Positions 189 to 64,000 of a stretch of DNA of 64,000 bases are shown here, in pieces. Source of the stretch: Clostridia bacterium (GTDB lineage: Bacteria > Bacillota > Clostridia > Oscillospirales > CAG-272); assembly GCA_017502875.1 (NCBI GenBank), contig JAFVUF010000012.1, forward strand, positions 168,952 through 232,951, in the 5' to 3' direction. How positions within the stretch are numbered: the first letter of the stretch is position 1; each line of letters starts with the position of its first letter. The notes under the pieces are model-generated. The model saw only the letters and a program-made list of their open reading frames with translations. It was not told the origin of the DNA and made no database searches. The position numbers and the translations under genes were made by a program.

Positions 189-842
189 ATGAAAAAAATC
201 AACTACGGAAAGCTTCTTGAAGCTAAATTAAAGGAATTAAATGAAAAGGGCGAGCGTCCAAGACTGCTTTTGCACGCGTGTTGCGCCCCATGCTCAAGCT
301 ATGTGCTTGAATATCTGCATAAATATTTTGACATCACCCTGCTCTACTATAACCCGAACATCTCACCCGAAACCGAGTATTTCACTCGCGCCGAGGAGCT
401 TAAACGGCTTGCGGGTGCGATGAACGAGGCTTTTTCACTAAACGGGCAGCCTATAAAGGTCGAGATAGCTCCTTATGACCCTGCGCCCTATGAGGCGATA
501 GCTAAGGGCAGAGAAACGCTTGCCGAGGGCGGCGCGAGATGTATGGACTGCTACCGTCTCCGACTTGAATACGCCGCAAAAGCGGCAAAGGACGGCGGCT
601 ACGACTATTTCTGCACCACGCTCTCTATCAGTCCGCACAAGAACGCCGCGGCGCTCAACGCAATCGGCGGTGAGCTTTCAGAAAAATACGGCGTGCCGTA
701 CCTGTTTTCCGACTTCAAAAAGAACGGCGGCTATCTGCGCTCCTGCGAGCTTTCAAAGGAATACGGGTTATACCGCCAGAACTATTGCGGATGCCAGGCA
801 AGCGCCAGGCGAGCGCCTGGAGGCGAAAAGGCGACCGTTTAA
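189..842 (+). CDS. queH: Epoxyqueuosine reductase QueH (DUF208)
   Basis: 217-aa ORF; HACCAPCSSY and C-terminal YRQNYCGC motifs typical of QueH; last ~16 codons and the stop lie inside repeat A1. Confidence 0.8.
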   Translation: MKKINYGKLLEAKLKELNEKGERPRLLLHACCAPCSSYVLEYLHKYFDITLLYYNPNISPETEYFTRAEELKRLAGAMNEAFSLNGQPIKVEIAPYDPAPYEAIAKGRETLAEGGARCMDCYRLRLEYAAKAAKDGGYDYFCTTLSISPHKNAAALNAIGGELSEKYGVPYLFSDFKKNGGYLRSCELSKEYGLYRQNYCGCQASARRAPGGEKATV

Positions 843-1080
843 TCTGGCCGTTTCACGTCGAAGGTCGCTAAGTCGAGGTTCGCTAAGGTTTAAACAGAGT
901 TTGACAGTGTTCAGAAGTTTTTGCCAAGCTTTTTCTAAAAAGCTTGTGCTGTCAAGGGCGCGGAGCCCTTGTCGTCCGTCGCAACGGACGAAATACTCTA
1001 ACCGGCGTTTCTTTTTTGTTACTTTTTTCTTTGCGCCTACTTCTTGCAAAGAAAAAAGTCATTGTGCCGATAGGCGCAAG
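793..1080 (-). repeat. Family-A composite hairpin repeat A1 (reverse orientation relative to A2)
   Basis: Modules GCCAGGCGAGCGCCTGGAGGC, GCTAAGTCGAGGTTCGC, AGAAGTTTTTGCCAAGCTTTTTCTAAAAAGCTTG, GTCGTCCGTCGCAACGGACGA, CTTTGC..GCAAAG arm hairpin, GTGCCGATAGGCGCA; matches 3334-3670 module by module. Confidence 0.85.
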
Positions 1081-2750: not shown

Positions 2751-3243
2751 AATAAACGCTCTTCATTTTCTGCTCCTCGTAGGGCTTATCGCGGAAATCG
2801 GTCTTAACGGCGGCAATCTTGTCAACCGTCTCGATTCCCTCGACAACCGCGCCGAAGCCCGCGTACTGTCCGTCAAGGAATGTAGCGTCGGCGTGGCAGA
2901 TAAAGAACTGACTCGAAGCGCTGTCGGGAATCTGTGTACGCGCCATCGAAATCACACCTCTCTTGTGAGAAAGTGTGTTATTTACGCCGTTTATCTTAAA
3001 CTCACCCTTAATGGTCTTTTTAGAGCCGCCCATTCCCGTTCCCGTCGGGTCGCCGCCCTGAATCATAAAGCCCGCGATAACACGGTGAAAGATTATACCG
3101 TCGTAATAGCTCTCGGAAACGAGCCTTTTGAAGTTTTCAACGGTTATGGGTGCGATGTCGGGGTAAAGCTCAACGACAATTTTGTCGCCGCTTTCCATTT
3201 CTATCGCAACGAAATTCGTTACCTCATCGGTTCTTGTAAACAT
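2740..3243 (-). CDS. ppiB: Cyclophilin-type peptidyl-prolyl cis-trans isomerase
   Basis: 167-aa ORF; FHRVIAGFMIQGGDPTGTG cyclophilin signature. Confidence 0.9.
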   Translation of the reverse strand: MFTRTDEVTNFVAIEMESGDKIVVELYPDIAPITVENFKRLVSESYYDGIIFHRVIAGFMIQGGDPTGTGMGGSKKTIKGEFKINGVNNTLSHKRGVISMARTQIPDSASSQFFICHADATFLDGQYAGFGAVVEGIETVDKIAAVKTDFRDKPYEEQKMKSVYFVK

Positions 3244-3333
3244 TTGATTTTTCTCCTTCTTGGGATTAATTTTGCTATATTATACCACAGTTTTTCGGTT
3301 TTGTAAACCCTTATTTAATCTCGAATTTCGGTT

Positions 3334-3670
3334 GTGCCGATTGGCGCAATGACTTTTTCTTTGGGAAGAAGCAGAGCCCAAAGAAAAAGTAACAAAAAGA
3401 AAGGCTCGTTTGGGATATTTCGCTCTCTGCGGAGAGCGAGGAGGGCTACTCGCCCGTCCACCTCGCAAGCTTTTTGAAAAAAGCTTGGCAAAAACTTCTA
3501 AATACTATGAACTTCTGTTTAAGTCTTAGCGTAGCGAAGCGAACCTCGACTTAGCGACCTTCGACGTGAAACGCCCAGATTAGACGGTCGCCTTTTTGCC
3601 TCCAGGCGCTTGCCTGGCGCCGCCATTTGCCCACGGGGGGCGTCCCCGGTCGCCGCAGGTCGTTACCTGC
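3334..3670 (+). repeat. Family-A composite hairpin repeat A2 (near full length, reference copy)
   Basis: GTGCCGATTGGCGCA; GACTTTTTCTTTGGG..CCCAAAGAAAAAGT; CGCTCTCTGCGGAGAGCG; CAAGCTTTTTGAAAAAAGCTTGGCAAAAACTTCT; GCGAACCTCGACTTAGCG; CCAGGCGCTTGCCTGG; GCCGCAGGTCGTTACCTGC abutting the stop at 3671. Confidence 0.9.
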
Positions 3671-5662
3671 TTAGTCAAGCTCACGGACACCTGTGTAAAG
3701 CTCGTAGTATCTGCCCTTCATTTCAAGCAGCTGCTCGTGAGTGCCGCGCTCAATTATCTCACCCTTTTCAAGCACCATTATAGCGTCGGAATTGCGGACA
3801 GTGGAAAGCCTGTGCGCTATAACAAAGGTCGTCCTGCTCTTCATCAGTCTGTCCATTCCGTGCTCGATATGGCGCTCTGTTCTCGTGTCAACCGAGCTTG
3901 TCGCCTCGTCAAGAACAAGTATAGGCGCCTTAGAGAGCGCCGCGCGGGCAATGTTGATAAGCTGCCTCTGACCCTGCGAAAGATTCGCTCCGTCGCCCTC
4001 AAGCAGAGTATTGTATCCGTTTTCCAGCCTCATAATAAAGCTGTGCGCCGATGCGGTCTTTGCGGCGGCAACAACCTCGTCATCAGTCGCGTCAAGGCGT
4101 CCGTAACGAATGTTCTCCATCACCGTTCCCGTGAAAAGATGCGTGTCCTGAAGCACCATCGCTATATTTGAACGAAGCGTTTCGCGCTTAATATCGTAAA
4201 GGTCTATACCGTCTATTGTTATTTTACCCGAATCAATATCGTAAAAACGGGAAAGAAGATTAGTAACCGTCGTCTTGCCCGCGCCCGTAGAGCCAACGAA
4301 GGCTATTTTCTGACCGGGGTGAGCGTAAAGCGAAATGTTCTTTAAGATAACCTTATCAGGCTCATAGCCGAAGGTAACATTCTCAAACACAACGTCGCCG
4401 ATAAGCGCGGTAGCCTCAGCCGCATCCTCTTTGTCAGGAGTTTCTGGCAGCTCATCCATTACCGCAAAAACCCTTTCAGCGCCGGCAAGCGCCGAGAAAA
4501 TAGATGCGGTCTGCTGAGAAATGTTGTTTATCGGCATAGAAAACTGCTTTGAATACTGCGCGAAAAGCTGAAGCGCTCCTGGGTCAAGTCTGCCAAGCAC
4601 CATCAGTATACCGCCTACTCCTATCGTTACGGAATAGCTTATCATACTCGTATTGTGCATTATAGGTCCCATAATGCCGCCGAAGAACTGCGCCTTCATC
4701 TGCTTTCCACGCAGGTCCTCGTTAAGCGTTTCGAACTCCTCGCAGCACTCTCCCTCGTGATTAAAGACCTTAACCACCTTTTGTCCCGTAACGGTCTCCT
4801 CAATGTAGCCGTTAGCCGCGCCGAGCGCCGCCTGCTGTCCCGAATAGTACTTTCTTGACGCCTTTGCTATCTTAGCGCCGCCTATCGCGAAGAACGGAAC
4901 GAAAACTACGGTTATCAGAGTCAGCCAGATATTAGTGGTTATCATAAAAACAAGCGTACCGACAAGCGAGATAACGCCCGAAACAATAGACGTAAGCGAG
5001 TTGTTGAACATAACGTCAATGTTGTCGATGTCGTTTGTAAAACGGCTCATCACCTCACCCGTCGGGTGAGTATCAAAGTAGCGCACAGGGAGTCTTTGAA
5101 GCCTTGTAAAGAGGTCGTTTCTTATTTTCTCTATGGCGTTTTGGGAAATCGTCATCATTACGCGCGCCTGCATATAGTTAGTTATTATACCGAAAAGGTA
5201 GATAAAGACAAGTATCATTATAGTCGCGAGAATGTAGAACATTACCGATGCCGCAACGTCATTGTAGCCGTCGCCGACTATACCCGCGATAAATCCCGTC
5301 GCGCCGTTCTTTACATTTTCTATAAGACCGTCGAGCGCTCTGTAAATAGGAGTGTCAAGGCTTTCGACGTTTCCTACCTCGCCCACGTACGCCCAGAGTC
5401 TGTTGATAATAGGTCTGGTCATATAACCGCCGATAAGCGACATCACCGTGTTGAGAATCATAAAGAAGAACACTACGAAAAGAAGCGCCTTGTATTTTCC
5501 GACGTAGGAAAGAAGTCTCGCTACCGTCTTTTTGGCGTTTTTAGGCTTGCCGCCCATTCCCATCTGACCTCTGCCCGAAGGGCCTCCTCTGCCGGACTTG
5601 GGAGAGTCGGGTCTTGCTGAGCTATGATACTGCTTTTGCAGCTCCTGTAAGCTTCTTGCCAT
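3671..5662 (-). CDS. ABC transporter ATP-binding/permease (multidrug-exporter type, half of heterodimer)
   Basis: Walker A GSTGAGKTT, signature LSQGQRQ, Walker B ILVLDEATS; start moved to MARSLQ (ATG 5662), 1 nt after upstream stop. Confidence 0.85.
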   Translation of the reverse strand: MARSLQELQKQYHSSARPDSPKSGRGGPSGRGQMGMGGKPKNAKKTVARLLSYVGKYKALLFVVFFFMILNTVMSLIGGYMTRPIINRLWAYVGEVGNVESLDTPIYRALDGLIENVKNGATGFIAGIVGDGYNDVAASVMFYILATIMILVFIYLFGIITNYMQARVMMTISQNAIEKIRNDLFTRLQRLPVRYFDTHPTGEVMSRFTNDIDNIDVMFNNSLTSIVSGVISLVGTLVFMITTNIWLTLITVVFVPFFAIGGAKIAKASRKYYSGQQAALGAANGYIEETVTGQKVVKVFNHEGECCEEFETLNEDLRGKQMKAQFFGGIMGPIMHNTSMISYSVTIGVGGILMVLGRLDPGALQLFAQYSKQFSMPINNISQQTASIFSALAGAERVFAVMDELPETPDKEDAAEATALIGDVVFENVTFGYEPDKVILKNISLYAHPGQKIAFVGSTGAGKTTVTNLLSRFYDIDSGKITIDGIDLYDIKRETLRSNIAMVLQDTHLFTGTVMENIRYGRLDATDDEVVAAAKTASAHSFIMRLENGYNTLLEGDGANLSQGQRQLINIARAALSKAPILVLDEATSSVDTRTERHIEHGMDRLMKSRTTFVIAHRLSTVRNSDAIMVLEKGEIIERGTHEQLLEMKGRYYELYTGVRELD

Positions 5663-8077: not shown

Positions 8078-8310
8078 TCGAGCGCCGCTAAGTCGAGGTT
8101 CGCTACGCTACGCTAAGACTTAAACAGAAGTTCATAGTATTTAGAAGTTTTTGCCAAGCTTTTTTCAAAAAGCTTGCGCCGTCAAGACCGCGTAGGTCTT
8201 GTCGTCCGTCGCAACGGACGAAATACTCTTATCGACCTTTTCTTTTTGTTACTTTTTCTTTGGGGTCTGCTTCTGACCAAAGAAAAAGTTATCGCTCCGC
8301 AGGCGCGACC
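8078..8310 (-). repeat. Family-A repeat A3 (left inverted repeat of the 8349-8890 cassette)
   Basis: GCTAAGTCGAGGTTCGC..AGAAGTTTTTGCCAAGCTTTTTTCAAAAAGCTTG..GTCGTCCGTCGCAACGGACGA..CTTTGGGGTCTGCTTCTGACCAAAG..ATCGCTCCGCAGGCGCGACC. Confidence 0.85.
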
Positions 8311-8347
8311 AAAACAAAAACAGCAAGCACTGAAAAATCGCCTGCTG
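8311..8347 (-). terminator. Intrinsic terminator of the 68-aa gene
   Basis: On minus strand CAGCAGGCGATTTTTCAGTGCTTGCTG stem-loop followed by TTTTTGTTTT. Confidence 0.6.
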
Positions 8348-8555: not shown

Positions 8556-8656
8556 TTCTACACCTCTGTAATATCTTACTGATAATATCTTAGAAATTAC
8601 ATATTTATTATAACTCGTGTATACTATAATTGTCAATACGTATTTGGAGAATAAAT

Positions 8657-8890
8657 ATGCAAAAGTTCGGAAAGATAGTTATAAAGGTAGAAGAAAAGAT
8701 AGCGGAAAAAGGATTTAGCAAAAACAGATTCACGCACGAGGCTCATATGGAGCACACTCAGTTAAATAAATTTTGCAGAAATGAAATAACTCAGCTCGAT
8801 ACGGACGTTCTCGCGAGAATTTGCACCGTTCTTGATTGCGAAATAGGCGAAATTCTTGAATTTATCCCGCCGTCAGAGGAAGAAAAGTAA
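8657..8890 (+). CDS. XRE/Cro-C1-type HTH regulator (77 aa)
   Basis: ORF trimmed to MQKFGK; HTH pattern FSKNRFTHEAHMEHTQLNKFCRNE..DTDVLARICTVLDCEIGEILEF. Confidence 0.7.
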   Translation: MQKFGKIVIKVEEKIAEKGFSKNRFTHEAHMEHTQLNKFCRNEITQLDTDVLARICTVLDCEIGEILEFIPPSEEEK

Positions 8891-8894
8891 AATC

Positions 8895-9064
8895 GGCTCG
8901 CACCTTCGGAGCGATAACTTTTTCTTTGGTCAGAAGAAGACCCCAAAGAAAAAGTTACAAAAAGAAAAGGTCGAAGGGAGAGTTTCGCTCTCTGCGGAGA
9001 GCGAGGAGGGCTACTCGCCCGTCCACCTCGCAAGCTTTTTGAAAAAAGCTTGGCAAAAACTTCT
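8895..9064 (+). repeat. Family-A repeat A4 (right inverted repeat of the cassette)
   Basis: GGCTCGCACCTTCGGAGCGATAACTTTTTCTTTGGTCAGAAGAAGACCCCAAAGAAAAAGT..CAAGCTTTTTGAAAAAAGCTTGGCAAAAACTTCT; first ~80 nt nearly identical to the reverse complement of the A3 inner end. Confidence 0.85.
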
Positions 9065-9116: not shown

Positions 9117-9145
9117 TTGACAAAGCGGTTTTAATATGCTATACT
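9117..9145 (+). promoter_or_regulatory. Sigma-A-type promoter of rplJ-rplL
   Basis: TTGACA, 17-nt spacer, TATACT. Confidence 0.6.
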
Positions 9146-14997: not shown

Positions 14998-15016
14998 TTT
15001 ATACCCTTTCGTTAAA

Positions 15017-15105
15017 GAGATACGCGCTTTCTTGAAAGAAAGCTGCGCAAAGAACTTTTGTATACTCGTTGCTCCGCACAAGCACGAAGCAACAAGCATA
15101 TATAG
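15017..15105 (+). repeat. Family-B repeat B3, head-first; head ~20 nt from the GT4 start codon
   Basis: GAGATACGCGCTTTCTTGAAAGAAAGCTGCGCAAAGAACTTTTGTATA plus hairpin CTCGTTGCTCCG/CGAAGCAACAAG plus TATATAG. Confidence 0.9.
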
Positions 15106-15240
15106 TTTTTTCGTGGCTTTTTCCAAAAATATACATTCCCTTAAACAATAAGATTATCACAAAAGGGAACGAAAAATAAATCGCAACGTGAACTTTAAAT
15201 GAGTTATCGCTTTTGAAGAAGTTACATCATTTGAAAAAAC

Positions 15241-15334
15241 TGTGTAAGGATATATAATCGATGCTTCGTATATATGCGAGGCATCGATTATACAGAAGTC
15301 TTTGCGCAGCTTTCTTCAGAAAGCGCGTAACCCC
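15241..15334 (-). repeat. Family-B repeat B4, tail-first; head ~20 nt from the trpS stop codon
   Basis: TATATAATCGATGCTTCGTATATATGCGAGGCATCGATTATACAGAAGTCTTTGCGCAGCTTTCTTCAGAAAGCGCGTAACCCC. Confidence 0.9.
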
Positions 15335-15353
15335 TTCAAGCGCGATAATCCCT

Positions 15354-16352: not shown

Positions 16353-16380
16353 GGTGTACCCTTTCTAAATTTGTACAAAA

Positions 16381-16467
16381 GGGATTACGCGCTTTTCGAG
16401 AAAAGCTACGCAAAAGCTTCTGTACGACGAAGCCGCACCCCACGGGGTATCGCTTCGTCATATGTAG
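16381..16467 (+). repeat. Family-B repeat B5, head-first; head ~29 nt from the trpS start codon
   Basis: GGGATTACGCGCTTTTCGAGAAAAGCTACGCAAAAGCTTCTGTAC plus hairpin GACGAAGC../..GCTTCGTC plus TATGTAG. Confidence 0.85.
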
Positions 16468-16604
16468 TTTTTATAGCTTTCACAAACACCGTACCGCTTC
16501 TATACATACCTGAATAGGTATAAAACGGAACGGAGAATGATATATCTCATTGTTAGATAAGATTGATAAGCATTTTTGCAGGAATTACGGAATTTTTGAA
16601 AACC

Positions 16605-16741
16605 GTGTAAGGATATATAATCGATGCTTCGTATATATGCGAGGCATCGATTATACAAAAGTCTTTGCGCCGACGTTTGCAAAGCAAACTCGTAAGAAAA
16701 CTTTAGTTTTTAAAGCTTCTCTTCAGAAAGCGCGTAACCCC
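16605..16741 (-). repeat. Family-B repeat B6 (extended variant), tail-first; head ~23 nt from the rimO stop
   Basis: Same tail hairpin as B4, then GCGCCGACGTTTGCAAAGCAAACTCGTAAGAAAACTTTAGTTTTTAAAGC insert, then TTCTCTTCAGAAAGCGCGTAACCCC. Confidence 0.9.
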
Positions 16742-16763
16742 TTCAAAACGCTAATCACTCTTA

Positions 16764-18101: not shown

Positions 18102-18126
18102 AGATACATCTCCAAAAAGAGTTTTC

Positions 18127-18290
18127 ATTCTTTCTTAAAAGAAAGAATCAAAGAACTTCTCTTACAAGCGAGGACGCTTTGTAAGAGCAAATCTTCGGCT
18201 TTTAAGCTTTTTCGTCCTCGCTTGTAAGAGAAAGCACTTGATTTTCTCTCACAAAACTATGAGAACACTTCAAAAGAACTAACCCAAAAA
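18127..18290 (+). repeat. Family-B-like repeat B7 (variant head), head next to the rimO start
   Basis: ATTCTTTCTTAAAAGAAAGAATCAAAGAACTTCT plus long hairpin CTTACAAGCGAGGACG../..CGTCCTCGCTTGTAAGAG; second small hairpin follows. Confidence 0.7.
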
Positions 18291-18899: not shown

Positions 18900-18925
18900 G
18901 TATTACCCCTAAGATTTTAAACATA

Positions 18926-19477
18926 TGTCGTGCCGACAGCACGATGACTTTTTCTTTTGGAAGAAGCAGAGCCATTTAACCTCGAATTCGCTCTGCGACA
19001 AACAGTAAGCCGCAGCTTTGCTTCGCATAGACGCAAATTCTGGCAGATGACTGAGATTAAGTGTAAATTCAAGTAACAAAAAGAAAGGCTCGGTAAAAGC
19101 ATGTCGTCCGTTACGACGGACGACAAGACCTACGCGGTCTTGACTGCGCAAGCTTTTTGAAAAAAGCTTGGCAAAAACTTCTAAATACTATGAACTTCTG
19201 TTTAAGTCTTAGCGTAGCGTAGCGAACCTCGACTTAGCGGCGCTTGAAATGCTCGACGTTCTCAAAAGCACGCGCCGCCATTTGCCCCCGGGCGCGCGCC
19301 CGGTGAAAAAGGTGGGCGAAAACTTTTTTAACACTGTGAACTTCTGTTTAAGCCTTAGCATAGCGTATCGAACCCCGACTTAGCGACCTTCGACGTGAAA
19401 CGCCCAGATTAAACGGTCGCCTTTTTGCCTCCAGGCGCTCGCCTGGCGCCGCAGTTTCGCCGCAGGTCGTTACCTGC
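18926..19477 (+). repeat. Family-A composite A5 (about two elements; first hairpin arm replaced by a 97-nt segment)
   Basis: All A modules in order, ending GCCGCAGGTCGTTACCTGC at 19459-19477, directly abutting the recA stop (19478). Confidence 0.9.
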
Positions 19478-20596
19478 TTAGTCGTCGAGCTTTACGTCAA
19501 AGAGGTCGTCGTCATCGTCGTCAAGGGCGTCCGCCTTGTCGCTTTCGGTCATCTCCATAGCTTCAAGATTACCGCTTGCTCTGACCTTTTTCTCAACCTC
19601 GGCAAACAGCTCTCTGTCGCTTTCAAGCACCGCGCGGATATTATCCTTACCCTGTCCGAGACGTTTTCCGTCAAAGCTGAACCACGAGCCGCTTTTTTCA
19701 ATTATATCAAGCTCGATAGCAAGGTCAAGCAGCTCGCCCGACTTTGAAATTCCCTTTCCAAACAGGATATCGAACTCCGCGGTCTTGAACGGGGGCGCAA
19801 CCTTGTTCTTAACGACCTTGCACTTAACTCTGTTTCCGTAGGTTTCGGCGCCGTTTTTAAGCGCCTCTCCCTTTCTGACCTCGATACGAACCGAGGCGTA
19901 GAATTTAAGCGCGCGTCCACCCGTCGTTACCTCGGGGTTTCCGTACATAACGCCAACCTTTTCACGAAGCTGGTTAATGAAGATACAAACGCAGTTTGCC
20001 TTAGCGACAGCGCCCGAAAGCTTTCTCATCGCCTGGCTCATAAGCCTTGCGTGAGCGCCGACGTTTGACTGACCCATATCGCCGTCAATCTCCTGCTGGG
20101 GAACGAGCGCGGCAACGGAGTCGATAATTATGGCGTCGATAGCGCCCGAGCGAACCAGCGCCTCGGTAATTTCAAGCGCCTGCTCGCCGCTGTCGGGCTG
20201 AGATATAAGAAGCTCGTTGATATCAACGCCGAGCGCCTTTGCGTAAACAGGGTCAAGAGCGTGCTCCGCGTCGATAAAAGCGGCGGTTCCGCCCGTTTTC
20301 TGAACCTCCGCGGCGACGTGAAGCGCAACGGTGGTCTTACCTGACGACTCAGGTCCGTAAATTTCAATTATTCTACCTCTCGGCATACCGCCTATACCGA
20401 GGGCGGCGTCAAGCATAATAGAGCCTGTCGATACGGCGCTGACCTGCATTTTGGCATTTTCGCCAAGACGCATAATAGTACCCTGGCCGTAAGCCTTGGT
20501 TATATGAGCGATAGCTGTATCGAGAGCCTTCTTTTTATCAAGGGCGGGGTTGCCTGTGCTTTCCGCTTCCTTTACTTCCTTTTTAGCCTTTGCCAT
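19478..20596 (-). CDS. recA: Recombinase RecA
   Basis: Walker [10 protein letters not shown], highly conserved RecA core; start placed at MAKAKK (ATG 20596, RBS AAGGAA); alternative ATG at 20614. Confidence 0.95.
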
Positions 20597-20642
20597 AGTT
20601 TTAGTTCCTTTCATTTCAAAAATTTAGGAGTTATCTTTTACA

Positions 20643-20760
20643 AAAGTTTTCGTCCACCTTTTTCAAAAGGTGGCGCGGTCAAGGCTGCGAAAGCCTTGTC
20701 GTCCGTCATAGCGGACGAAACCTTCCCTGCGGCGATTTTTTTTGCGAGCTTTTGCGTAGG
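20643..20760 (-). repeat. Family-A partial repeat A10
   Basis: AAAGTTTTCGTCCACCTTTTTCAAAAGGTGGCG; GTCAAGGCTGCGAAAGCCTTGTC; GTCCGTCATAGCGGACGAAA. Confidence 0.75.
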
Positions 20761-24703: not shown

Positions 24704-26839
<2,136 letters not shown>

Positions 26840-26930
26840 TCAGTTGGGTTTATTAAATTTTTATTGGATAGATATGATGTTGTGAGGTAGGTGAACGTTC
26901 TTTTGATTAAATCTACGAAATAATTCTTTT

Positions 26931-27037
26931 GCGCCGATAGACAAAAGCGATCATAGTTTAGCCTTGAACTAATATTAAGTCTATCGGTGTAAAAGAAGTT
27001 TTTGCGCAGCTTTTTTCAAAAAGCGCGTATTCCCCCC
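26931..27037 (-). repeat. Family-B repeat B11, tail-first; head overlaps the DUF370 stop codon
   Basis: Hairpin GCGCCGATAGAC../..GTCTATCGGTGT then AAAAGAAGTTTTTGCGCAGCTTTTTTCAAAAAGCGCGTATTCCCCCC. Confidence 0.85.
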
Positions 27038-28543: not shown

Positions 28544-29131
28544 GTGCCTGTTGGCACAAGCTTTTTGAAAAAAGCTTGACCAAAACTTCTCTTACGGGCT
28601 GCCGCCCAACACTTAACAAACACTTACTCTGTTTAAAATCTTTACAAGGAAGCCGTAGGCTTTAACTTAGCGGCGCTCGAAATGCTCAACGTTCTCAAAA
28701 GTACGCGCCGCCAATTCGCCAACGGGGGCGTCCCCGGTCGCCGCAGGCCGTTGCCTGCCGTCGCCATTTGCCTCCAGGCGCTCGCCTGGCGCAATGACTT
28801 TTTCTTTGGGAAGAAGCAGAGCCCAAAGAAAAAGTAACAAAAAGAAAGGCTCGTTTGGGATATTTCGCTCTCTGCGGAGAGCGACAAGGCTCCGCGCCTT
28901 GACTGCGCCGCCTTTTGAAAAAGGTGGGCGAAAACTTCTAAGCATTGTGAACTTCTGTGCAAACCTTAGTGTAGCGAAGCGAACCTCGACTTAGCGGCGC
29001 TCGAAATGTTCGACGTTCTCAAAACTACACGCCGCCATTTGCCTCCGGGCGCTTGCCTGGCGCCGCCATTTGCCTACAGGCGCTTGCCTGGCGATTGCCA
29101 TTTGCCTACAGGCGCTCGCCTGCCGATTGCC
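28544..29131 (+). repeat. Family-A composite array A6 (at least two elements plus extra CCAGGCG hairpin units)
   Basis: GTGCCTGTTGGCACAAGCTTTTTGAAAAAAGCTTG..; GCAGGCCGTTGCCTGC variant hairpin; second full module series; three tandem GCCATTTGCCT(C/A)C(A/G)GGCGCT(T/C)GCCTGGCG units; overlaps the degV 3' end. Confidence 0.9.
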
Positions 29132-41762: not shown

Positions 41763-42752
41763 ATGAACCTGAAAGGAAGAAGCTTTTTAAAGCTTATCGA
41801 CTACACCCCTGAGGAGATTGAATACTTAATCGACCTCGCCGCAGACCTCAAAGCAAAGAAAAAGTCGGGAATTCCCGTTTTTGATATGCACAGAGGCAAG
41901 AACATCGTTCTCATTTTCGAGAAAACCAGCACCCGTACCCGCTGCTCCTTTGAGGTAGCGGCGCACGACCTCGGCATTACTACCACCTATCTTGACCCCG
42001 CAGGCTCGCAGGTTGGCAAAAAGGAGAGCATTGCGGACACCGCGAGAGTTCTGGGCAGAATGTACGACGGAATTGAGTACAGGGGCTTCGGTCAGGAATT
42101 GGTCGAGGAGCTTGCTAAACATGCGGGCGTTCCCGTTTGGAACGGTCTGACAAACGAATTCCACCCCACTCAGATACTTGCCGATTTCTTAACGATTCGC
42201 GAGCGCTTCGGTAAACTTAAAGGCATAAATTTTGTTTATATGGGCGACGCCCGTTACAATATGGGTAACTCCCTTATGGTCGGCTGCGCCAAGATGGGAC
42301 TGAACTTCACCGCCTGCGCCCCGAAGAAATACTTCCCCGACCCCGCCCTTATCAAGCTCTGCGAGGGCTACGCCAAGGAAAGCGGCGCGACTCTGCGCTT
42401 CATCGAGGAGCCAACCGAGGCAGTAAAGGGCGCAGACGTCATCTACACGGACGTCTGGGTGTCGATGGGAGAGCCTATCGAGGTCTGGGAGCAACGTATT
42501 AACGACCTCGGCGCGTACCAGGTCAACCGCGCGCTTATGGACGCTACATCTAACCCGCAATGCGTATTTATGCACTGTCTGCCCGCATTCCACGACTTAA
42601 AAACCAAGGTCGGCGCGGAGATGTGCGCCAAGTTCGGCAGAACCGAAATGGAGGTTACCGACGAGGTATTCGAAAGCCCGGCGTCCATTGTTTTCGACGA
42701 GGCTGAAAACCGTATGCACACGATAAAGGCGGTTATCGCCGCTACATTATAG
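41763..42752 (+). CDS. argF: Ornithine carbamoyltransferase
   Basis: [24 protein letters not shown] motifs. Confidence 0.93.
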
Positions 42753-42916
42753 GAAAGTTTTGGTCGAGCTTTTTTAAAAGCTCGCGCCATCAAGGGCGCG
42801 CGCCCTTGTCGCTCGTCGCAACGAGCGAAACACCCCTACGACCTTTTCTTTTTGTTACTTTTTCTTTGGGGTCTGCTACTGACCAAAGAAAAAGTCATTA
42901 CGGCACAGACGTAACC
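42753..42916 (-). repeat. Family-A partial repeat A7, starting right after the argF stop
   Basis: GAAAGTTTTGGTCGAGCTTTTTTAAAAGCTCG; ATCAAGGGCGCGCGCCCTTGTC; GCTCGTCGCAACGAGCGAAA; CTTTGGGGTCTGCTACTGACCAAAG; GTCATTACGGCACAGACGTAAC. Confidence 0.85.
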
Positions 42917-42961
42917 CGAAATTGCATCACGTTCTGATACAAAACTGTCAGGAGACCACAT

Positions 42962-48451: not shown

Positions 48452-48535
48452 GGAGAGATACGCGCTTTCTTGAAAGAAAGCTGCGCAAAGAACTCTCTTA
48501 CCGCGACAGCAGGAGCTATCGCGGTAAGAGATAAC
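48452..48535 (+). repeat. Family-B repeat B19, head-first; ~14 nt after the rlmH stop
   Basis: GGAGAGATACGCGCTTTCTTGAAAGAAAGCTGCGCAAAGAACTCTCTTACCGCGACAGC..GCTATCGCGGTAAGAGATAAC. Confidence 0.9.
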
Positions 48536-48689
48536 TCTGTGTATCTCCTTTGAGGAAACTCGGACACTCCTGCCGCTAAACATACTTTTGATATAACCCG
48601 TAATCGATAAAATTAATAAAAATAGGACGTACAGGTTCTTCATTTGGAAAGAAAAACGTCCTTTTAGAAAGAAGTTATCGAAAATTTTT

Positions 48690-48768
48690 ATTAAACCCAA
48701 CTCCTTTTTGAGGGGTTGGGTTTAATACAGAAGCTTTTGCGCAGCTTTTCTCGAAAAGCGCGTATCTC
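48690..48768 (-). repeat. Family-B repeat B20, tail-first; head ~23 nt before the mnmG start
   Basis: Hairpin AAACCCAACTCC..GGGGTTGGGTTT then AATACAGAAGCTTTTGCGCAGCTTTTCTCGAAAAGCGCGTATCTC. Confidence 0.88.
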
Positions 48769-48790
48769 TTTTCAACCGGAAGGAACACAA

Positions 48791-52870: not shown

Positions 52871-52899
52871 TTGACAAGAACCCTCAAAACTGATATAAT
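52871..52899 (+). promoter_or_regulatory. Consensus sigma-A promoter of parA-parB
   Basis: TTGACA, 17-nt spacer, TATAAT (perfect consensus hexamers). Confidence 0.7.
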
Positions 52900-52963
52900 G
52901 TTCTTACATCGATTACCCATCGTAATGCCGCTGCTTGCTCAGCGGAGAAAGGAACCGTTATTG

Positions 52964-53734
52964 ATGATAATTTCAATCACTAATCAGAAGGGCGGAGTTG
53001 GAAAAACCACGACGGCTGTCAATGTTGCCGCAACCGTAGCGGCGCTGGACAAAAGGGTTCTTCTTATAGACCTCGACCCCCAGGGCAACGCTTCGACGGG
53101 CGTAGGCTTCATGGACCGCGCTTCTCTAAACTCCAGCTATAACGTTATCACCGAAAATCTTCCTATAACCGACGCGATTTATCACACGGAGTTTAAAAAC
53201 CTCGATATTGTACCCTCGGCAAACCATTTGGCTGCCGCGGAGCTTGAAATCGCGGATTTTGATGCCCGTGAACGTATACTCAAGGGCGCAATTTCAGTCA
53301 TCAAGGATAGGTATGACTACATATTTATCGACTGTCCGCCAGCCCTCGGACTCCTTACCATAAACGCTCTTGTCGCAAGCGACGGGGTGATAATCCCTTG
53401 TCCGTGCGAATTTTACGCGCTTGAAGGGCTTGTTCAGCTCACTAACACCGTTGAGAGCATAAAGGAATACCACAATCCCAAGCTTGAAATTATTGGTGTT
53501 CTTGTAACAATGTATAACAGCAGACTGAACATTTCGCAATCAATAATGAACGACCTACGCGGATATTTTGGCAATCTTCTGTTCAAAACAACCGTTGTTC
53601 GAAACGTCAGATTAGCGGAAGCCCCTTCGTACGGCACACCGGTGCTTTACCTCGACAAATTTTCCAAAGGCGCTCAGAACTACATTTCAGTAACAAAAGA
53701 GCTTATTGAGCGTGTCGAGCACCAAAATTACTAA
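52964..53734 (+). CDS. soj: Chromosome partitioning ATPase ParA/Soj
   Basis: Deviant Walker A NQKGGVGKTT; start trimmed to MIISITNQ (ATG 52964). Confidence 0.93.
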   Translation: MIISITNQKGGVGKTTTAVNVAATVAALDKRVLLIDLDPQGNASTGVGFMDRASLNSSYNVITENLPITDAIYHTEFKNLDIVPSANHLAAAELEIADFDARERILKGAISVIKDRYDYIFIDCPPALGLLTINALVASDGVIIPCPCEFYALEGLVQLTNTVESIKEYHNPKLEIIGVLVTMYNSRLNISQSIMNDLRGYFGNLLFKTTVVRNVRLAEAPSYGTPVLYLDKFSKGAQNYISVTKELIERVEHQNY

Positions 53735-53744
53735 AATCAGCGTA

Positions 53745-53760
53745 TGTTTCACGTGAAACA
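53745..53760. promoter_or_regulatory. parS site 3 (between parA and parB)
   Basis: TGTTTCACGTGAAACA. Confidence 0.9.
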
Positions 53761-53791
53761 TTGCATTTTGTAGAAAGGAACGGTAACAAAA

Positions 53792-59707: not shown

Positions 59708-59766
59708 TTCAATATCACAAATCACGGGTCGCTTCGTTTAATACGGGGCGGCCCGATTTCTTTATA

Positions 59767-60269
59767 AAGCTTGGCAAAAACTTCTGAACACTGTGAACTT
59801 CTGTTTAAGCCTTAGCATAGCGAAGCGAACCTCGTCTTAGCGGCGCTCGACGTGAAACGCCCAGATTAAACGGTCGACTTTTTGCCTCCAGGCGCTTGCC
59901 TGGCGCCGCCAATTCGCCGCAGGTCGTTACCTGACGCCATTTGCTTCCGGGCGCTCGCCCGGCGCAATGACTTTTTCTTTGGGAAAAAGCAGAGCCCAAA
60001 GAAAAAGTAACAAAAAGAAAGGCTCGTTTGGGATATTTCGCTCTCTGCGGAGAGCGAGGAGGGCTACTCGCCCGTCCACCTCGCAAGCTTTTTGAAAAAA
60101 GCTTGGCAAAAACTTCTGAACACAGTGAACTACTGTGTAAACCTTAGCATAGCGAAGCGAACCTCGACTTAGCGGCGCTCGAAATGCTCGACGTTCTCAA
60201 AACTACACGCCGCCATTTGCCTCCAGGCGCTTGCCTGGCGCCGCCAATTCGCCGCAGGTCGTTACCTGC
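59767..60269 (+). repeat. Family-A composite A8 (two tandem elements), ending at the mnmE stop
   Basis: Two successive series ..AAGCTTGGCAAAAACTTCT..GCGAACCTCG(T/A)CTTAGCGGCGCTCGA..CCAGGCGCTTGCCTGG..GCCGCAGGTCGTTACCTG(A/C); the last C of the second is the G of the mnmE TAG stop. Confidence 0.9.
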
Positions 60270-63746: not shown

Positions 63747-63794
63747 TTTGTTAAAATTCCTCTCTAATTGCTTCCGCAGAAGCTCATAATATTT

Positions 63795-64000
63795 AAAAGT
63801 TTTTGCCCACCTTTTTGCAGGCAACGGCCTGCGGCGAAATGGCGGCGCGTGCTTTTGAGAACGTCGAGCATTTCGAGCGCCGCTAAGTCGAGGTTCGCTT
63901 CGCTACGTTAAGATTTACACAGAAGTTCACTGTGTTCAGAAGTTTTTGCCAAGCTTTTTTCAAAAAGCTTGCGAGGTGGACGGGCGAGGAGCCCTCCTCG
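63795..64000 (-). repeat. Family-A repeat A9 (cut by window end)
   Basis: AAAAGTTTTTGCCCACCTTTTTGCAGGCAACGGCCTGCGGCG..CATTTCGAGCGCCGCTAAGTCGAGGTTCGC..AGAAGTTTTTGCCAAGCTTTTTTCAAAAAGCTTG.. Confidence 0.85.

Follow-up and report, generated by a model that had tools for sequence, protein, structure and literature searches.

Repetitive extragenic palindromic sequences (REP) and bacterial interspersed mosaic elements (BIME) are known from Enterobacteria, Pseudomonas and Stenotrophomonas as short GC-rich extragenic palindromes, which occur at high density and often lie few nucleotides from stop codons (PMC2817692, PMC3333891, PMC12306157). They are non-autonomous and are mobilised by REP-associated tyrosine transposases (RAYT) (PMC2817692). 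As summarised in PMC12306157 after Liang et al. 2015, many REPs of E. coli are found 1-20 nt from the ends of open reading frames (ORFs). BOX elements of Streptococcus pneumoniae (boxA-boxB(n)-boxC) are 67-637 bp long, strongly folded, intergenic and co-transcribed (PMC3049150, PMC3184786). Together with RUP and SPRITE they are described as parasitic, structured, co-transcribed repeats which are absent from related species (PMC3049150). Hairpin repeats of this general kind were investigated in a 64,000-nt stretch of contig JAFVUF010000012.1 (the window), which belongs to an uncultured, spore-forming member of the Clostridia whose genome encodes Spo0A. Sample names of matching assemblies suggest an origin from the ruminant gut. 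The repeat in focus is termed family A. The family itself was previously undescribed, its general kind (REP/BIME, BOX, elements like miniature inverted-repeat transposable elements, MITEs) is known. With a probability of about 0.6, family A forms, together with two further families B and C, a lineage-specific, non-autonomous, hairpin-built repeat superfamily of selfish or near-neutral character.

Ten family-A loci (A1 to A10, 120-590 bp) were retrieved in the window by blastn with positions 3300-3680 as query, and a repeat finder gave the same grouping. Side-by-side reading in a single orientation showed one module order common to the copies, M1-M2-linker-M3-M4/M4'-M5-M6-M7a/M7b-M8. The original prediction of ten loci built from the same ordered set of modules was reproduced. 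Its statement that modules are swapped, duplicated or deleted between copies held as well: M4 and M4' alternate, as do M7a and M7b, the M5-M8 block is doubled in A5, A7, A9 and A10, and A4, A6 and A8 are truncated or internally deleted. M2 was found in A1, A2, A3, A4, A7, A8 and A9 and is interrupted in A5, where about 110 nt are inserted within it. M6 is conserved in A1, A2, A3, A5, A7, A9 and A10. Relative to the flanking transcription five copies point one way and four the opposite way, and one lies between convergent genes; A3, A4, A6 and A10 are located upstream of genes. The 30 proteins encoded next to elements are all housekeeping proteins. In total, 37% of the intergenic DNA of the window (4.35 of 11.7 kb) is repeated inside the window.

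Each listed module was folded alone and compared with shuffled sequence (z). Seven of the eight predicted hairpin modules are true hairpins with z from -2.2 to -4.6. The eighth, GCGAACCTCGACTTAGCG, does not fold (-0.6 kcal/mol, z +0.4), so this part of the prediction had to be given up. The whole element folds far better than its shuffles on both strands, with z -4.6 for the transcribed and -3.8 for the other strand. M1 varies among the copies while its stem stays complementary, and A1 carries the M1 of A2 flipped in place to its reverse complement, loop included. For M3 three stem haplotypes were observed (CTCTC/GAGAG, TCCGT/ACGGA, CTCGT/ACGAG), with both sides changed in four of eight pairs. 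M4 (CAAGGNC..GNCCTTG), which replaces M4' in other copies, is 100% paired with three of seven pairs double-changed. The outer stem of M5 co-varies too (CAAG/CTTG, CGAG/CTCG, CCAC/GTGG). M7b (GGCGC..GCGCC, z -1.45) takes the place of M7a in other copies. Modules are often joined at short GC strings that they share, such as CCTGGCGC followed by AATGAC, which suggests that recombination at microhomology may lie behind the junctions. In the orientation opposite to that of the element, M1 plus GACTTTTTCTTT obtained a weakly terminator-like score in a terminator scan.

M8 consists of REP-like units, which number from one to four. Read on the minus strand, which is the transcribed one in A2, each unit combines a GC hairpin of 16-18 nt with a subsequent tail of the type (G/A)GGC(A/G)AA..GGCG. 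A unit is 31 nt long (16-nt hairpin and 15-nt tail), and arrays are head-to-tail with a spacing of 28-32 nt. The units are flanked by GCCATTTGCC or GGCAAATGGCG; GTAG is absent. All 21 REP-like hairpins of the window are extragenic or lie at the last codons of genes.

The claim that stems change by compensatory pairs was examined by formal counting against shuffles and slid controls, and it passed. Of the tested stem pairs 13 of 31 are double-changed, and none of 500 shuffles reached the covariation score. In the alignment of the 21 REP-like units 95.8% of the cells are paired and three of six pairs are double-changed (score 0.395, shuffled 0.148, 0/500). For seven aligned M3-M4-M5 blocks the values were 98.8% paired cells and ten of 25 double-changed pairs (score 0.362, shuffled 0.151, 0/500); ten double-changed pairs were reached by one of 500 shuffles. 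Pairing dropped to 29-50% in the slid controls of both alignments. G-U cells are nearly absent (3 of 291, about 1%), A-C cells, which correspond to G-U on the other strand, are equally frequent, and there is no strand bias. Several stem swaps run from C:G to G:C without a wobble intermediate. Because both strands are paired, G-U is rare without strand bias, C:G/G:C swaps occur and M1 is found flipped, the changes are read at the level of DNA. The covariation, built from few independent events, looks like palindrome maintenance in DNA and not like strand-specific RNA, which is an indication and not a proof.

Loci and contigs from other assemblies and relatives (L-numbers) were obtained for comparison via exact-protein look-ups and via homologues of RecA and the ABC exporter; about 70 kb of the genome under study were readable overall. 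In the look-ups cyclophilin matched the same strain only, and the helix-turn-helix (HTH) protein gave no record. From recF to trigger factor, gene order is conserved in L127 and L128, whose RecA is 88-90% identical, and in L132 (85%), but almost no elements are present. Spacers of these element-free relatives measure about 1-80 nt. By our own sum, the 11 shared spacers from recF to trigger factor amount to about 0.9 kb in L127 and about 3.2 kb in the window. The recA gene overlaps recX in L127 and L128. The comparison of stop contexts in element-free orthologues, which had been proposed as a check, gave 5 nt after recA (L132), 1-22 nt between dnaN and recF, and about 190 nt behind the ABC exporter of L136 and L137, where a canonical terminator stands 21 nt past the stop.

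Furthermore, elements differ between close strains. L004 encodes an identical RecA with 98.3% identical recA DNA; a family-B element follows recA, and a longer, inverted A copy stands before it at the position of A6. L130 and L131 share an identical RecA and have different elements. At the same boundaries, L129, L130/L131, L133/L134 and L135 carry related or different hairpin repeats; M7a with a REP-like hairpin occurs twice in L129. In L129 the TAA of recA is directly followed by GCAGGCAAGCGCCTGC, of which a second copy lies 5 nt past another gene. The recX-miaB spacers of L133 and L134 were considered as a filled/empty pair, which was discarded as both are rearranged.

The core of M5 links family A to the other families. 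It comprises a palindrome with inner CTTTYY-GA-RRAAAG, a co-varying outer stem and GCAAARRCTTYT, and 19 copies were counted in the window. As predicted, the palindrome with GCAAA(A/G)(A/G)CTT(C/T)T is common to families A and B. The shared core makes families A, B and C one putative superfamily in terms of sequence, in which A holds the core internally. Family B is a unit of 300-400 nt whose ends are inverted core copies of about 45 nt with an outer flank. In the third type (C) a CTTTCTTGAAAGAAAG core is followed by CAAAGAACTTYTCTTACA and then by a long hairpin. Inverted termini of about 45 nt and internal long hairpins are thus present in both B and C. In several relatives the third type lies 0-25 nt past the stops of recF, gyrB, miaB and recA, always in sense. 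An exact 33-nt core match was found in a single species representative of GTDB, the Clostridia metagenome-assembled genome L005; the genome of the window is absent from the representatives.

Family B was located at 15010-15340, 16380-16745, 26625-27030 and 48452-48772. Its ends read (A/G)GGG(A/T)(A/T)ACGCGC-palindrome-GCAAAGACTTCTGTA, with a long hairpin beside each end. The third core type, NNNCTTTCTTGAAAGAAAGNNN, lies at 18125, 27449 (minus strand), 35080, 40890, 46966 and 48460 of the window and in L129-L134; its inverted partners sometimes stand just ahead of the ribosome-binding site of the next gene. A long near-perfect palindrome at 18138-18251 in the recX-miaB spacer, with weak plant-miRNA-like Rfam matches on both strands, probably corresponds to such a long hairpin in a C-type element. 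In L005 (Clostridia bacterium S22M_St_8, 2923-3283) an M4-like hairpin and the 33-nt core are tandemly duplicated directly upstream of a gene, and part of this region is masked N. The core was also considered as a promoter. TGTATAAT follows some B cores, but a -35 box is absent and family A lacks TGTATAAT. Likeness of the palindrome to a CodY box was set aside, as its centre spacing differs from what we take to be the consensus.

The original prediction had one 19-mer abutting the stop codons of three unrelated minus-strand genes. GCCGCAGGTCGTTACCTGC was found exactly at 3652-3670, 19459-19477 and 60251-60269, and its hairpin lies 0 or -1 nt from the stops of the ABC exporter, recA and mnmE. 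All three stops are native. The end ..YTG(K/V)RELD-stop of the ABC exporter is the C-terminus in 120 orthologues, ..VKLDD-stop of RecA is common to the relatives L130-L132, and ..FCVGK-stop is the usual end of MnmE, where the G of TAG doubles as first base of the hairpin. Three further copies with 1-2 mismatches were detected, at 28740, at 59916 and, on the minus strand, at 63817 (chance expectation 0.01). The dnaN gene on an adjoining contig of the same genome is a fourth flush case, ending in ..IRMKD-stop with TAA directly followed by CGGGGACGCCCCCG.

All eight element-terminal REP-like arrays examined are in sense behind the upstream gene, from -45 to +5 nt of its end, five of them at 0 or -1 nt. 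For three of the 21 REP-like hairpins the distance to a sense stop is 0 or -1 nt; about 0.1 would be expected according to our own estimate for uniform placement in the 11.7 kb of intergenic DNA. Flush placement is non-random. It is not universal: the ORFs of QueH and DegV run into elements and stop inside. QueH extends 14 codons into A1 and stops within M7a; its tail past the conserved YCGC reads QASARRAPGGEKATV-stop, and the Pfam match to QueH covers it as far as residue 207 of 217. DegV passes through the last hairpin of A7 and ends with ..FFWQSAGERL-stop at a TAG that arose by a G-to-T change in the unit. A8 meets a stop codon with its core end, not with a REP-like end. No U-run was found after the stop-flush hairpin, where GGCGA.. 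follows instead, and the terminator scan gave no entry at 3655-3670, 19462-19477 or 60254-60269. The hairpin is not a canonical terminator, as had been stated. Ordinary U-run terminators exist elsewhere in the window and begin only 3-5 nt past stop codons. The family-A loci and the modules of A2 are listed in Table 1.

Table 1 Family-A loci of the window and modules of copy A2
Feature	Position	Strand	Description
A1	802-1079	-	QueH ORF (189-842) enters its REP-like end
A2	3334-3670	+	Terminal hairpin against stop of ABC exporter
A3	8078-8314	-	Upstream of MarR gene; without REP-like array
A4	~8897-9064	+	M1 to M5 only; few nt past TAA of HTH gene 8630-8890; upstream of L10 leader promoter
A5	18927-19477	+	recA-recX spacer; hairpin 19462-19477 touches recA TAA 19478-19480 (minus strand)
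A6	20639-20743	-	M3-M4-M5, upstream of recA
A7	28557-29125	+	Composite copy in DegV-recF spacer
A8	42751-42923	-	M1 to M5; core tail overlaps TAG (42750-42752) of carbamoyltransferase gene
A9	59757-60269	+	Double copy; hairpin 60254-60269 shares 1 nt with mnmE TAG
A10	63777-64000	-	Upstream of yidC; cut by window end; ~560 nt when whole, as on L138 4660-5215
M1	3332-3349	+	7-bp hairpin TTGTGCC-GATT-GGCGCAA, then TGAC; -11.1 kcal/mol, z -3.9
M2	3351-3390	+	14-bp A/T-rich hairpin GACTTTTTCTTTGGG..CCCAAAGAAAAAGT; -17.5 kcal/mol, z -4.6
Linker after M2	3391-3419	+	AACAAAAAGAAAGGCTCG
M3	3420-3439	+	8-bp hairpin TCGCTCTC-TGCG-GAGAGCGA; z -4.05
M4'	3437-3465	+	Hairpin CGAGG-AGGGC..GCCC-..CCTCG; z -2.3
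M5 core	3466-3499	+	Palindrome CAAGCTTTTT-GA-AAAAAGCTTG and tail GCAAAAACTTCT; common to families B and C
M6	3500-3556	+	Unstructured conserved segment holding GCGAACCTCGACTTAGCG; 39-nt context also z +0.4
M7a	3555-3590	+	Hairpin CGACC..GGTCG; z -2.0
M8	3602-3670	-	Three REP-like units; last hairpin 3655-3670 touches ABC exporter TAA (3671-3673, minus strand)

Some features next to the elements were observed in addition. A near-consensus promoter of the cyclophilin gene (3279-3307, minus strand: TTTACA, 17 nt, TATAAT, with TG) lies just beyond the M1 end of A2, which occupies the entire gap from the upstream stop codon to this promoter. In Rfam nothing was found in any A locus even with E up to 5; only the ribosomal protein L10 leader passed (RF00557, 9144-9322, 47 bits), which is situated directly 3' of A4 and of a consensus promoter at 9117-9145. 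A elements fully enclose ORFs of 80-106 aa at 28642-28962, 59805-60086, 8791-9033 and 18909-19151, all on the minus strand. These ORFs are probably spurious, like those reported in large BOX elements. Compared with mnmE, the segment from gidA to parB (48.7-54.7 kb) runs in inverted orientation, and A9 lies at the point of junction. At 53744-53761, 9 nt past the stop of a ParB-type gene (52871-53734), a perfect palindrome resembling parS was detected, ATGTTTCACGTGAAACAT.

The selfish or near-neutral reading follows from the mosaic copies, the absence in relatives, the polymorphism between strains, the occurrence in both orientations, the invaded coding ends and the double-sided stem changes. 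Spread and reshuffling would take place at the level of DNA, with single-strand hairpins being recognised or templated. Modules could be joined by recombination where they share a short GC motif such as GGCGC, and unequal exchange may have produced the direct 31-nt arrays. Palindromes would be kept if the hairpin is the thing that is copied or recognised, and template switching within the palindrome would restore complementarity. At recA and dnaN the tolerated insertion sites would be only the few bases from the stop codon to the next ribosome-binding site. With spacers as tiny as these (5 nt and 1-22 nt) in a compact genome, an insertion could hardly fall anywhere but at the stop codon, which would account for the flush position at these two genes. 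A copy landing slightly inside a gene would persist only when a stop follows soon within the element. As a by-product, formerly overlapping or coupled genes (recA-recX, dnaN-recF) would be uncoupled. A stable GC hairpin would then sit at the terminating ribosome, which must melt it, and could shield the 3' ends of mRNAs from exonucleases. It is plausible that translation termination and mRNA ends are affected, and ribosomes could be stalled in the way described for E. coli REPs.

Several observations weigh against this reading. The argument from spacer size covers recA and dnaN only; the spacer of about 190 nt in relatives leaves the flush position at the ABC exporter unexplained, and no empty site was found for mnmE. 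That all eight arrays lie in sense near gene ends, five of them flush, is not obviously predicted by a purely neutral model; either orientation-specific insertion or selection acting on the transcript would be consistent with it. In different lineages (L135; L130, L133) the same stops are abutted by hairpins of different families. In L135 an unrelated GC hairpin follows the ABC exporter directly (TAA, then CCGACGACGGTCGG). In the approximately 70 kb of the window and fetched flanks, neither a transposase or RAYT nor any other mobilising gene was detected. Family A has no terminal inverted repeats, M1 and the REP-like ends being unrelated, and no target-site duplications were detected at the four B units or at the A junctions examined. 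Mobility of family A is therefore inferred from presence and absence only. None of the near-identical strain pairs compared showed a precise empty/filled insertion.

Further candidates were tried. A strain-specific ORF of 481 aa in L133 was regarded as a possible mobilising gene; it encodes a beta-helix protein and no transposase. The idea of Tn3-like termini (GGGG, with 5-bp duplications) found no support. Viral contigs and collections of phages and plasmids gave no match to the elements. A degenerate 19-mer gave at least 120 single-match loci in metagenomes from soil, gut and other sources; none of those listed carries another module, and they are regarded as chance GC palindromes.

Alternatively, the modules could be selected RNA elements of 3' untranslated or intercistronic regions. 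The hairpin would stall or slow the terminating ribosome, block 3'-to-5' exonucleases, set the expression ratio of neighbours such as recA and recX, and define mRNA ends without a U-tract. The covariation would then stem from the structure of the RNA. The sense orientation of all eight terminal arrays behind the upstream gene is in line with this, and so is the slightly better folding of the transcribed strand. A2 stands where L136 has its canonical terminator. The unrelated hairpins that hold the same flush position in other lineages hint at selection for a hairpin at the stop codon. For E. coli, PMC12306157 summarises, citing Liang et al. 2015, that REPs up to 15 nt from the stop stall ribosomes and lower translation. 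In contrast, whole elements occur in both orientations and in four cases upstream of genes, three close relatives manage the same genes without them, elements differ between strains, and some copies damage or lengthen coding ends. The near absence of G-U pairs without strand bias does not fit an RNA either. Hence we consider this explanation unlikely.

A role of transposase-mobilised MITEs is still somewhat less probable. Families B and C with their inverted repeats of about 45 nt containing the core would be mobile, and family A would be made of nested, truncated insertions and tandem duplication without a grammar of its own. This would agree with the clear inverted termini of the 300-400-nt B units, with the A block of L004, which is flanked by inverted cores, and with modules that occur in duplicate or shortened and are fused where they share short homology, as at the CCTGGCGC junction mentioned above. 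However, target-site duplications are absent at B and A junctions, and no autonomous element with these termini was found in the readable DNA. Moreover, one module order in at least ten A copies is unlike random nesting, and the REP-like units stand in direct 31-nt arrays.

Equally doubtful is a placement of the elements at stops by a dedicated mechanism. A hairpin-recognising system (HUH/Y1-like or other) would insert the REP-like end 3' of TAA or TA and thereby bring or recreate the stop and re-code the last codons. This is hinted at by four observations. A2 and A5 share a stretch of 27 identical nt, of which 6 (GAC TAA) already belong to two unrelated genes. The stop of recA and dnaN is TAA here, and TGA or TAG in element-free relatives. 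In strains with the same RecA and different downstream elements, synonymous differences crowd the last ~15 nt of recA (3' end at window 19478-19495 and L004 1945-1962), at 20-30 times the density of the rest of the gene: six of 19 differences between the window and L004 fall in the last 16 nt, and five of 26 between L130 and L131 in the last 14 nt. Finally, unrelated hairpins are flush with the same stops in sister lineages. If the mechanism existed, stop-flush hairpin arrays would serve this clade in place of intrinsic terminators and intercistronic regulators.

Other observations were made at the end of recA. Its end-alleles are common to several species. In L130 (11123-11150) the TGA stop opens the core palindrome TGACTTTTCTTGAAAGAAAAGTCA. 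L133 and L134 (11135-11185) show a 16-bp inverted duplication, in which the last five recA codons and TAA are followed by their reverse complement. Such hairpins over the recA stop, formed in other ways, would also fit insertion or templating directed at the stop codon.

A metagenome assembly artefact or chimeric joining as the source of the repeats is highly improbable: contigs of independent assemblies end inside elements, short contigs break within A9 and the DegV-A7-recF junction (~28.8 kb) contradicts the dnaN-recF order of all relatives, but the same elements and junctions recur in assemblies made independently (recA region: three ENA samples; mnmE junction: ENA and Logan contigs), related strains and species have related copies, and at most one junction, not the elements themselves, would be chimeric. 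At this junction recF is preceded by DegV and A7 in the window (~28557-29125) and by dnaN in every relative, and the contig that carries dnaA and dnaN of this genome terminates within an A7-like element (L138 1-260). The junction is either a repeat-mediated rearrangement or a chimeric join.

For the selfish or near-neutral superfamily, the findings mean a repeat invasion of REP/BIME- or BOX-like type, known from E. coli and pneumococcus, in uncultured gut Clostridia. Elements have separated gene pairs which overlap or are tightly spaced in relatives (recA-recX, dnaN-recF), and the C-termini of two enzymes, QueH and DegV, were rewritten. Element-free sister genomes with the same gene order offer a comparative system for the spread of repeats, the symmetry of palindromes and the effect of stop-flush hairpins on termination and mRNA ends. 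In addition, the repeats break metagenome assemblies and may produce chimeric joins or real rearrangements in this group.

Among the known systems, to none of which family A is related in sequence, MITEs (Correia/NEMIS, RUP) and REPIN doublets are likewise small non-coding multi-copy repeats at gene boundaries with insertion polymorphism. MITEs can supply stops, promoters and terminators. Inverted termini are present in families B and C only; family A differs by the lack of terminal inverted repeats and target-site duplications, and no cognate insertion sequence was found. Palindrome-associated elements derived from IS200/IS605 (PATE) have subterminal hairpins without inverted termini or duplications and insert 3' of a fixed tetra- or pentanucleotide. 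The hairpins of family A and its lack of inverted termini and duplications would agree with this; the bases before the terminal hairpin are CTAA in three cases, ATAA and AATA in one case each, and TTGC, ATCG and GATG elsewhere; no TnpA was seen.

SPRITE is a pneumococcal hairpin repeat that resembles Rho-independent terminators and is biased to gene 3' ends (PMC3184786). The stop-flush hairpin differs from SPRITE and from intrinsic terminators by the missing U-run. MIRUs are, as summarised in PMC3184786 after Supply et al. 1997, direct tandem units in operon spacers whose ends overlap the flanking stop and start codons. Family A shares with them direct tandem units in intercistronic spacers and ends at the stop codons of flanking genes. 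In contrast, MIRUs are 40-100 bp long with short ORFs for translational coupling, while the 31-nt hairpin units separate formerly coupled genes.

With BOX elements family A has in common the ordered modules with variable repetition, the strong predicted folding, the nesting with other repeats and the creation or alteration of ORFs. This is an analogy only; family A is unrelated in sequence, has more module types and carries a GC-rich REP-like tail. To our knowledge, flush placement at stop codons has not been described for BOX.

The likeness to REP/BIME comprises mosaic arrays with other conserved motifs, species specificity with absence from relatives, and stems kept complementary. The 31-nt unit falls within the size of short GC-rich extragenic palindromes (about 20-65 nt); more than 100 copies per genome are typical of REP/BIME, and 21 units were counted here within 64 kb. 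Differences are the lack of sequence similarity, of the GTAG-type 5' tetranucleotide in family-A units and of a RAYT in the readable DNA, and the host, which belongs to a Firmicute/Clostridia lineage. Family-A units stand in direct 31-nt tandem, whereas REPs alternate within BIMEs, and the array forms no more than the tail of an element of 120-590 bp that contains six further modules. Family A thus works like REP/BIME and BOX, yet it is not a member of those families.

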